From positions 1 to 5,648 of the IMG/VR virus record IMGVR_UViG_3300045988_006862: a stretch of DNA of 5,648 nt, one strand, 5' to 3'. The notes beneath the pieces are model-generated. The model worked only from the letters and a program-made list of their open reading frames with translations, did not search any database and was not told where the DNA came from. This document shows positions 3,293-3,457 of the stretch, one piece after another; position 1 is the stretch's first letter; each line of letters opens with the position of its first letter. Origin of the DNA: a virus. The position numbers were made by a program, and so were the translations under genes.

Positions 3293-3457
3293 TGTGGAAA
3301 AGTTGAAAAGTATAATTTTAAAACGTTAGAGCGTAAAAAAACAAACAAAATCAATGTTGAAAGATTTGTTGAAAACTTGTTGAATTGTTGAAACACTCTA
3401 TTGTGCTAAAGTTTAACAATGTTGAAATGTTGAAAACTATGTGGAAAATGTTGAAAA
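3293..3457 (+). repeat. Array of 11 same-orientation TGT(T/G)GAAA(A) iteron-like repeats (DnaA-box-like on the complement)
   Basis: Copies: 3293 TGTGGAAAA, 3302 GTTGAAAA, 3355 TGTTGAAAG, 3367 TGTTGAAAA, 3378 TGTTGAAT, 3386 TGTTGAAAC, 3402 TGTGCTAAA, 3420 TGTTGAAAT, 3428 TGTTGAAAA, 3440 TGTGGAAAA, 3449 TGTTGAAAA. The complement TTTTCCACA fits TTWTNCACA, and TTTTCAACA is one mismatch away. An AT-rich tract (3311-3354) separates copies 2 and 3. Confidence 0.85.

Follow-up and report, generated by a model that had tools for sequence, protein, structure and literature searches.

The DNA analyzed here (the window, 5,648 nt of IMG/VR virus record IMGVR_UViG_3300045988_006862) represents a circular gokushovirus genome, complete at ~5,593 nt, with positions 1–55 duplicated at 5594–5648. 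All of its genes lie on the (+) strand and encode VP1 (which spans the circle ends), VP2, VP4/Rep, an M15 endolysin-like peptidase, VP5, and VP3, together with small open reading frames; VP5 matches a PHROG family labelled DNA-binding. Between the VP4 and peptidase genes, there is an unusually long non-coding region (3150–3736) that houses an array of short direct repeats, described in the original prediction as a cluster of boxes for the bacterial initiator DnaA. Our subject is this array, which proved to make up the distal half of a larger unit, the conserved cassette at 3254–3457, and the relationship of that cassette to bacterial chromosomal origins.

The motif TGTKGAAA has 8 exact matches in the genome against 0.56 expected, a count that was reached in none of 200 dinucleotide shuffles, and all eight are on the (+) strand within 3293–3456, as expected if all repeats share one orientation. 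Exact TGTTGAAA is present in 6 copies genome-wide, only in the array, which bears out the claim that the exact repeat does not occur elsewhere; if one mismatch is allowed, the genome total rises to 13, with 10 sites in the array and 3 outside it. The array is non-random, and its copies agree in strand. Eleven repeat starts had been listed, and the array as such was confirmed, but individual copies required correction. Specifically, the copy placed at 3302 is really AGTTGAAAA starting at 3301, with a one-base overlap with the first copy, the copy at 3378 reads TGTTGAAT, and the copy at 3402 (TGTGCTAAA) departs from the 8-mer core at three positions and counts as an array member only if read as the DnaA box TTTAGCACA.

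For the relaxed DnaA-box consensus TTWTNCACA (≤1 mismatch), the proposed enrichment turned out to be local rather than genome-wide: the whole genome holds 16 sites vs 12.6 expected, i.e., no enrichment, whereas 6 of these 16 fall in the 176 nt around the array, where the density elsewhere in the genome predicts 0.32 (Poisson 1e-6). Shuffling the array region alone yielded a mean of 2.75 sites, with 41 of 1,000 shuffles reaching 6; this is a harsh, conservative control because the repeats themselves determine the composition of the region. Just two genome sites, 3293 and 3440, lie within one mismatch of TTATCCACA, and at both, TTTTCCACA matches TTWTNCACA exactly, in agreement with the perfect fit claimed for them. 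Neither strand of the array has appreciable single-strand structure; only the hairpin at 3163–3192 and the CG-rich tract fold. An alternative promoter reading, with the TTGAAA units as −35 boxes, produced one weak 9/12 match only and was rejected.

On the (−) strand, the cassette consists of nine distal boxes TTTTC(A/C)ACA, a linker, the pair TTTTCAAC-TTTTCCACA, a 4-nt gap, the trios CTA CTA CTA CGA CTA, and an AT-rich stretch, in that order (Table 1). We compared this arrangement with the basal unwinding system (BUS) of oriC, whose definition comes from the incC region of Bacillus subtilis (Richardson 2016; Pelliciari 2021, PMC8287927), and verified the orientation and layout of the trios against Tables S1 and S2 of PMC8287927. 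The trio-adjacent box, TTTTCCACA at 3293–3301 (−), has one mismatch to TTATCCACA, where a BUS allows at most two, and the second, co-oriented box, TTTTCAACT at 3301–3309, stays within the four mismatches allowed for the tandem pair. The trios follow with a 12-nt spacer and a 4-nt gap, compared with the at least three 3′-NAN-5′ trios and a spacer of no more than 16 nt (mode 12–13) that characterize a BUS. Viewed on the (+) strand, trios and gap are followed by TGTGGAAAA and then AGTTGAAAA. Read 3′-to-5′ from 3309, the (+) strand of the window gives AAAAGTTGA AAAGGTGT ATGA GATGATGATGCTGAT; in the same direction, the B. subtilis BUS reads AATAGGTGT TTAGGTGT CCGG GATGATAATGAAGATGAT (trios starting GATGATAAT) and that of Staphylococcus aureus AATAGGTGG TTAGGTGT CGTG GATGATGATAATGAT (PMC8287927). 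Published second boxes include xxATCAACA (Enterococcus faecalis) and GTTTCAACA (Corynebacterium glutamicum) (PMC8287927), and in the strand-separation assay of Pelliciari et al., activity was seen with the DnaA of E. faecalis. Clostridium BUS sequences (DoriC) read TCAACA-GCCC-CTA, which likewise supports the comparison. A box followed after 3–5 nt by CTACTACTA was found in 0 of 1,000 genome shuffles.

The distal boxes are 8–9 nt units at an irregular spacing of 8–18 nt, and the last four (3420–3457) form a box-box-NNN-box-box quartet. Past the trios, the AT-rich end follows directly, as in host origins. The two leftmost copies of the original prediction are real members of the array, but their identity is that of the trio-proximal tandem pair of a BUS, and the trios next to them, which are the most diagnostic element of the layout, had been missed. 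Similarly, the AT-rich tract at 3311–3354 is real (GC of ~22%, which is just slightly AT-richer than the 3250–3470 block at 22–35% GC), but its assignment as the unwinding element was not upheld, as it belongs to a poorly conserved linker whose host equivalents are GC-rich, not AT-rich. By analogy with BUS, unwinding should instead begin at the trios and run into 3254–3273, i.e., on the opposite side of the pair. Within the otherwise variable linker, an AACGTT palindrome is kept (TTAACGTT in distant cassettes), with no counterpart in host origins. A dif/XerCD-like site noted by eye at 3246–3274 was dropped (no convincing match and no prophage).

Table 1. Features of the cassette and its surroundings, with mean pairwise identities computed among 63 close relatives
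Feature	Position	Strand	Description	Identity
VP4/Rep gene	2130–3149	+		
GGTGTCACC and perfect 11-bp hairpin	3152–3192	+	Arms 3163–3173 and 3182–3192; loop ATCAAGTA	
CG-rich alternating purine/pyrimidine tract	3207–3253		Z-DNA-prone; second hairpin in single-stranded DNA; borders the cassette	
AT-rich cassette end	3254–3273		85% A+T; position of the BUS unwinding element	
Invariant AACTTGTTG	3265–3273		Within the AT-rich cassette end	0.996
DnaA-trio array	3274–3288	+	5′-TAG TCG TAG TAG TAG-3′, i.e., 3′-GAT GAT GAT GCT GAT-5′ outward from the box	
TAG units (four)				0.997
Fourth trio from the box				0.58
Gap AGTA	3289–3292		4 nt; length constant in main cassette types, sequence free	0.58
Proximal tandem DnaA-box pair	3293–3309	−	TTTTCAAC(T)-TTTTCCACA; starts 8 nt apart	0.92
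Linker	3310–3354		Joins proximal pair to distal boxes; conserved AACGTT at 3322–3327	0.67
Distal DnaA-box cluster	3355–3457	−	Nine co-oriented boxes; (+)-strand starts 3355, 3367, 3378, 3386, 3402, 3420, 3428, 3440, 3449	
Distal box cores				0.74
Sequence between distal boxes				0.56
Beyond the array	past 3457			0.40
M15 endolysin-like peptidase gene	3737–4120	+		

In line with the expectation that related microviruses would keep the array, the block 3153–3457 is ~80% or more conserved in 66 gut microviruses deposited in GenBank, whose sources are human, pig, monkey, dog, and mink, and is also kept in IMG/VR relatives found via VP4, with conservation stopping exactly at 3457. Searching viral contigs for the core CTACTACNNCTACAACAAGTT and adding the loci found earlier raised the number of unique cassettes to at least 169, in genomes whose VP4 and VP1 are 34–94% and ~40–90% identical, respectively, to those of the window; AACTTGTTG is kept across this same range of Rep identity. 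The gap takes the form of more than 25 different 4-mers among these cassettes, nine of them having GCCC as in hosts. Being fixed in length and free in sequence, it points to two separately read elements held at a set distance. Across at least 1,831 phage box sites, position 6 is A in 85%, C in 13%, G in 2%, and T in 0%, positions 2–5 and 7–9 are 85–99% fixed (TTTC.ACA), and TTATCCACA is matched perfectly at 16 sites.

The cassette occurs in both orientations. Among the matches listed, 137 unique cassettes are of the window type and 31 are inverted, with one further genome (L209) bringing the inverted ones to 32. Inversion is found in at least four VP4 lineages, and the inverted unit extends from the distal boxes through ...CAACAAGTTATAT; the hairpin at 3163–3192 keeps its orientation and thus lies outside the invertible unit, and the CG-rich tract remains on the hairpin side. 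The cassette always adjoins VP4, upstream and not downstream of it in a clade of ~35% VP4 identity, so that two genome positions are represented. This distribution fits an orientation-independent element working on the duplex replicative form, and the use of either orientation beside a hairpin of unchanged orientation speaks against a signal that would be read on a single packaged strand. In the inverted-cassette genomes, ACTTG[AT]T is nearly missing from the gene strand.

Several candidates were removed from this comparison. A Listeria-associated contig and MT837454 were rejected as cassette carriers, their matches being coding-region coincidences (VENV repeats). An 8.8-kb IMG/VR contig (L059) was rejected as a cassette-less relative: at 4100–6500, its microvirus part is joined just past the hairpin to portal, head-morphogenesis, and terminase-like genes of the tailed-phage type on the other strand, and it is most likely an assembly chimera.

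A BLAST search of the array against PLSDB revealed no similar plasmid origin; its only useful match, 28 nt in Subdoligranulum variabile (OY725844.1), is the dnaA-dnaN intergenic region, i.e., a chromosomal origin region. The S. variabile origin reads ...TAG ACG TAG TAA TAG GGGC TGTGGATT TGTTGAAT..., followed by co-oriented TGTTGAAA-type boxes. This first host locus was found by its likeness to the phage; eight further Oscillospiraceae origins (metagenomic relatives) were selected independently of it, by DnaA homology alone (70–83% identity), and rpmH-dnaA-dnaN synteny was present in all eight. Named members of the cluster include Subdoligranulum, Ruthenibacterium, Pygmaiobacter, and Oscillospiraceae. 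All nine host origins have the arrangement [9-mer box][8-mer box][NCCC][CTA YTA CTA C(G/T)N CTA ...] with co-oriented distal boxes, for example, CTTTCCACA TTTCCACA GCCC CTA CTA CTA CTG CTA and TTTTAAACA TTTCAACA GCCC CTA x5, to which the phage equivalent is TTTTCAAC(T) TTTCCACA NNNN CTA CTA CTA CNN CTA. The fourth trio, variable in phages, is the same unit that departs from CTA in most host origins. The oriC-style arrangement suggested earlier for the cluster has gained considerable support from these origins, as the same box variant, order, and orientation recur in nine Oscillospiraceae dnaA-dnaN regions.

The host boxes are TTTTCAACA and TTTTCCACA in about equal use, with 61 in 2.8 kb of intergenic DNA vs 33 in 28.9 kb of flanks (~19-fold denser); A occupies position 6 in 56% of host boxes (34 of 61) vs 85% of phage boxes. 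Few boxes lie in the rpmH-dnaA spacer, which makes the dnaA-dnaN region the main box cluster of these hosts, and the distance from the first box to the trios is ~170–230 nt, a length shared with the phage cassette. The phage distal quartet aligns at 37 of 40 positions with boxes just past dnaA in one host (L218), and the box-pair/trio part is ~85% identical over 64 nt to another host origin. The phage-host local alignment score was 66, compared with at most 28 for shuffled controls.

The DnaA proteins of Subdoligranulum and its relatives carry RDHSTV in 101 of 103 motif-bearing sequences (L217 1562–2884, P0001–P0120) at a position where E. coli, B. subtilis, Mycobacterium tuberculosis, and Aquifex have RDHTTV. 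The change lies in the domain IV helix, whose residues 432–435 contact bases in E. coli, and it may underlie the relaxed box position 6, that is, the use of TTTTCAACA. The cassette and the host origins together suggest that bacteria with an RDHSTV DnaA use TTTTCAACA as a functional DnaA box.

Taken together, these sequence comparisons make it likely that 3254–3457 is a compact mimic of a Clostridia chromosomal origin, most plausibly of the Oscillospiraceae, which would recruit host DnaA and open the replicative form by means of the trios. As the cassette lies between VP4 and the peptidase gene of a phage genome and not beside dnaA/dnaN, it is a mimic or captured copy rather than a chromosomal origin, and it probably goes back to an ancient capture. 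Among the three functional options of the original prediction, recruitment of DnaA to the replicative form appears to be the best fit. Host DnaA would bind the boxes on the double-stranded replicative form, and ATP-DnaA, if it behaves as in a BUS, would start to oligomerize at the proximal pair and extend along the TAG strand of the trios, so that the duplex would open into 3254–3273. In what is the weakest step of the scheme, the opening might serve loading of the host helicase/replisome, exposure of the invariant AACTTG/TTG to the phage Rep, or both. Phage DNA replication would thereby be tied to the host initiator, and the many replicative-form copies would soak up DnaA as a side effect.

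A bolder version of this proposal, which we regard as tentative and more likely wrong than right, holds that the cassette is an unwinding core captured from the host chromosomal origin by a large clade of uncultured gut gokushoviruses, that ATP-DnaA opens the replicative form through it, that the latter is theta-copied as a minichromosome after helicase loading, with a possible long-lived carrier state, and that the bubble presents AACTTG/TTG to Rep in replacement of the classical hairpin. If so, this would be the first virus with a complete module, and the cassette could be read as a host barcode that assigns these phages to Oscillospiraceae. Origins of plasmids and of some phages are already known to contain DnaA boxes; what appears to be new is that a rolling-circle phage with single-stranded DNA has a complete box-pair/trio module matching that of a host. 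The full-text literature returned nothing for Microviridae with "DnaA box" or for gokushovirus with DnaA, and reviews of microvirus diversity do not treat this region, which fits the earlier statement that such a cluster is undescribed in Microviridae.

Several observations weigh against a captured host origin. The AT-rich end is 20 nt only, with a GC-rich tract beyond it, and the invariant CTACAACAAGTTA past the trios has no host counterpart and resembles the nick site of a microvirus, so that a Rep site could account for some of the conservation credited to the DnaA-trios. Many of the genomes are closely related, which inflates the conservation figures of Table 1 by counting lineages repeatedly. 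The classical gokushoviruses Chp2, SpV4, and phiMH2K are without the cassette and replicate without it; the cassette is therefore an accessory of larger gut genomes and not the core rolling-circle origin of the family. At position 6, TTTTCAACA breaks the E. coli rule TTWTNCACA, and its use by host DnaA is deduced solely from its enrichment in host origins. A scan of 185,579 genomes with CTACTACNNCTACAACAAGTT revealed no prophage and no exact host counterpart. Finally, other Clostridia share the general plan.

The cassette is not the only candidate replication signal in the non-coding region. The element at 3152–3192 is a candidate Rep origin or other replication signal, with a hairpin loop that is invariant and a stem that is 93% conserved in the 63 relatives; compensatory stem changes occur in two genomes (L082 and L084). 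The hairpin has a homologue in the intergenic hairpin of Chp2, with which it shares the flank CTAGGTGA and the ACTTGAT motif of the loop, but it carries TACTTGAT on the strand opposite the genes, whereas ACTTGAT is on the gene strand in Chp2 (L214, AJ270057, 2904–2941), SpV4 (L215, 512–544), and phiMH2K (L216, 3296–3335). This opposite placement may reflect opposite packaging polarity, or it may mean that the hairpin is not the nick site. The phiX174-type nick motif has two partial matches in the window, on opposite strands: one at 3265–3273, with ACTTG(A/T)T at 3266–3272, and one in the hairpin loop. The 10-mer ACTTGTTGTA, within the AT-rich end, equals the phiMH2K hairpin loop and resembles both the loop of SpV4 and the cleavage site of phiX174 (CAACTTG/ATA). 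The CG-rich tract between hairpin and cassette is present in relatives and variable in sequence (pairwise identity of 0.72). At Chp2 2820–2840, two tandem TTTTGCACA sites, 12 nt apart and ~65 nt from the hairpin, are the only perfect TTWTNCACA matches of that genome, which hints that DnaA boxes near the origin region could be more widespread in gokushoviruses.

We weighed five other explanations for the cassette. Pure titration is possible but, in our view, unlikely: the array would then be only a sink that recruits DnaA without productive opening, drains it from the host origin in the manner of datA or of cloned B. subtilis inc regions, and halts host initiation during infection. That cloned DnaA-box regions titrate the protein is established, and eleven host-type boxes per genome, multiplied by the replicative-form copy number, would suit this role. 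However, a sink needs neither trios nor fixed spacing, and the trios, the gap spacing, and the proximal pair are what is best conserved (0.92–0.997 vs 0.74 for the boxes). Titration alone fails to explain why the trios are the best-conserved part.

Iterons for VP4/Rep, VP5, or another phage protein, with a coincidental likeness to DnaA boxes, are disfavored, and we regard them as highly improbable. Direct repeats near Rep genes are common in rolling-circle replicons, the cassette is always beside VP4, and VP5 belongs to a DNA-binding-labelled family. However, the same 9-mer, order, and orientation, together with trios, build the host chromosomal origin, and the motif stays constant as VP4 falls to 34% identity, where drift along with VP4 would be expected. 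Moreover, iterons are ~17–22 bp long at regular spacing, compared with the 8–9 nt units at 8–18 nt spacing seen here, and position 6 of the boxes varies between A and C only, towards the DnaA consensus.

Very little credence is due to the idea that the Rep origin proper lies here, i.e., that AACTTG/TTGTAG and the TAG run form the VP4 nick/recognition site (candidate cut sequence AACTTGTTGTAG), with the boxes as auxiliaries and DnaA playing no role. The identity of ACTTGTTGTA to the phiMH2K hairpin loop, its invariance, and its absence from host origins are consistent with such a site. Against it, the inversion seen in 32 unique genomes would flip the nicked and packaged strand, the motif of the inverted genomes would share a strand with the ACTTGAT of the hairpin, and each unit of the trio run, the free fourth one included, has its match in host origins, as does the gap. 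The chance is slim indeed that the packaged single strand uses the cassette as its complementary-strand origin, for example, through a DnaA-box hairpin that assembles a DnaA-dependent primosome in the way of the R6K A site. About one-fifth of related cassettes have an inverted TGTGGAAAA beside TTTTCAACA that could pair in single-stranded DNA; the window is without this inverted copy, its array is essentially unstructured, and with both orientations occurring, no single strand carries a constant reading. Least probable of all are sites for another host regulator such as Spo0A, as in phage phi29: TGTTGAA is one base off the 0A box TGTCGAA, and 0A boxes overlap DnaA boxes in B. subtilis oriC, but the G required at box position 6 is seen in 2% of phage sites, the alternative base there is C as in DnaA boxes, and the trios and the host dnaA-dnaN match would be left unexplained.

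If the cassette does copy a host origin, it also points to a host. Because other Clostridia share the general plan of the BUS, we regard the assignment to Oscillospiraceae, which is built on sequence likeness, as provisional. Strong Shine-Dalgarno sites and a sigma-70 promoter with an extended −10 fit a Firmicutes host, and the M15 peptidases of gut gokushoviruses have been placed next to Faecalibacterium (Roux 2012). M15 peptidase homologues were rejected here as a host clue: among the best 120 matches, the contigs are no longer than ~12 kb (bar one nr-only protein), and the named few are microviruses. In the scan of 185,579 genomes, no host locus had the CTACAACAAGTT of the phage, and the matches comprised 15 chance occurrences within coding sequences (YYxYNKF) plus a free microvirus contig in a metagenome-assembled genome labelled Bacteroides sp. 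CAG:545. The latter (L209, CAVKUS010000079.1) is a complete 5.7-kb microvirus genome with the cassette; its binning is weak host evidence and at odds with the Firmicutes-type signals.

Some further observations concern the rest of the window. Its gene strand is A-rich and T-poor (A 37%, T 18%), as are the third codon positions of VP1 (A 37%, T 18%); the skew of phiMH2K is similar, and that of Chp2 and SpV4 is opposite (T 45–55% at third positions). Use of this skew as a marker of the packaged strand was dropped, as the phiMH2K gene strand is A-rich, yet its hairpin motif is on the gene strand. At 3637–3709, a perfect 14-bp hairpin (3671–3699) holds the −35 element of a perfect sigma-70 promoter, TTGACA-16-TATAAT, with TG upstream, and a second TTGACA ... 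TGATATAAC site lies 45 nt further upstream; hairpin and promoters look like a terminator/promoter switch preceding the peptidase gene. An Rfam scan of the whole window found no match at gathering score. The sole match in 3150–3736 was a sub-threshold sraA at 3632–3706, outside the array (26 bits vs gathering 56, E 0.86), and a weak match to Termite-leu RNA at 2180–2267, in the 5′ part of the VP4 gene (28.8 bits vs gathering 51, E 0.003), is probably due to chance.

In the standard picture, microviruses exemplify rolling-circle phages that depend on their own Rep together with host elongation factors. If our proposal is correct, a major gut lineage would also tap the host initiation machinery, which would link its replication to the growth state of the host and possibly disturb host initiation. 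The abundant and persistent gokushoviruses of the gut are uncultured, and which bacteria they infect has been a long-standing puzzle. A cis element that copies an origin would provide a concrete host prediction, namely, Oscillospiraceae such as Subdoligranulum or Faecalibacterium, and could guide the choice of strains for isolation. For studies of the DnaA mechanism, the cassette would represent a natural minimized BUS variant of ~200 nt in which the fourth trio and the sequence of the gap are free to vary.

Among known systems, phiX174 has the gpA origin CAACTTG/ATATTAATAAC..., and the classical gokushoviruses (Chp2, SpV4, and phiMH2K) differ from the window in having a nick-like motif in a gene-strand hairpin loop and no box/trio cassette. 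The replicons P1 oriR, pSC101, RK2, and R6K borrow host DnaA via a few boxes plus iterons for their own initiator and replicate in theta mode; they resemble the phage as mobile replicons with DnaA boxes beside their own Rep system. To our knowledge, no such plasmid or phage origin has the full box-pair/trio module, and none belongs to a rolling-circle single-stranded DNA virus. datA is likewise a co-oriented DnaA-box cluster outside the chromosomal origin, but is without trios or an unwinding element, whereas the trios are the part that the phages preserve most strictly.

A further close counterpart is the BUS. Shared features are the co-oriented pair of a 9-mer and an 8-mer, the 4-nt gap, and at least three 3′-GAT-5′ trios on the strand set by the box; the short AT-rich stretch beyond them may correspond to the unwinding region of a BUS. 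The 9-mer and 8-mer with a 12-nt spacer are as in B. subtilis, S. aureus, and Listeria; the box starts are 8 nt apart like those of B. subtilis boxes 6 and 7, and distal boxes lie upstream like boxes 1–5. The phage version differs in lying in a 5.6-kb single-stranded DNA phage and not between dnaA and dnaN, in a gap that is mostly not GC-rich, in an AT-rich end of 20 nt with a phage-specific invariant motif, and in boxes that are mostly TTTTCAACA. In comparison with the Oscillospiraceae origins, the linkers and the sequence past the trios are unrelated, but the two share TTTTCAACA/TTTTCCACA boxes, the quartet that follows dnaA in the hosts, the NCCC gap (in nine phage cassettes), and the trios CTA CTA CTA CGA/CTG CTA.

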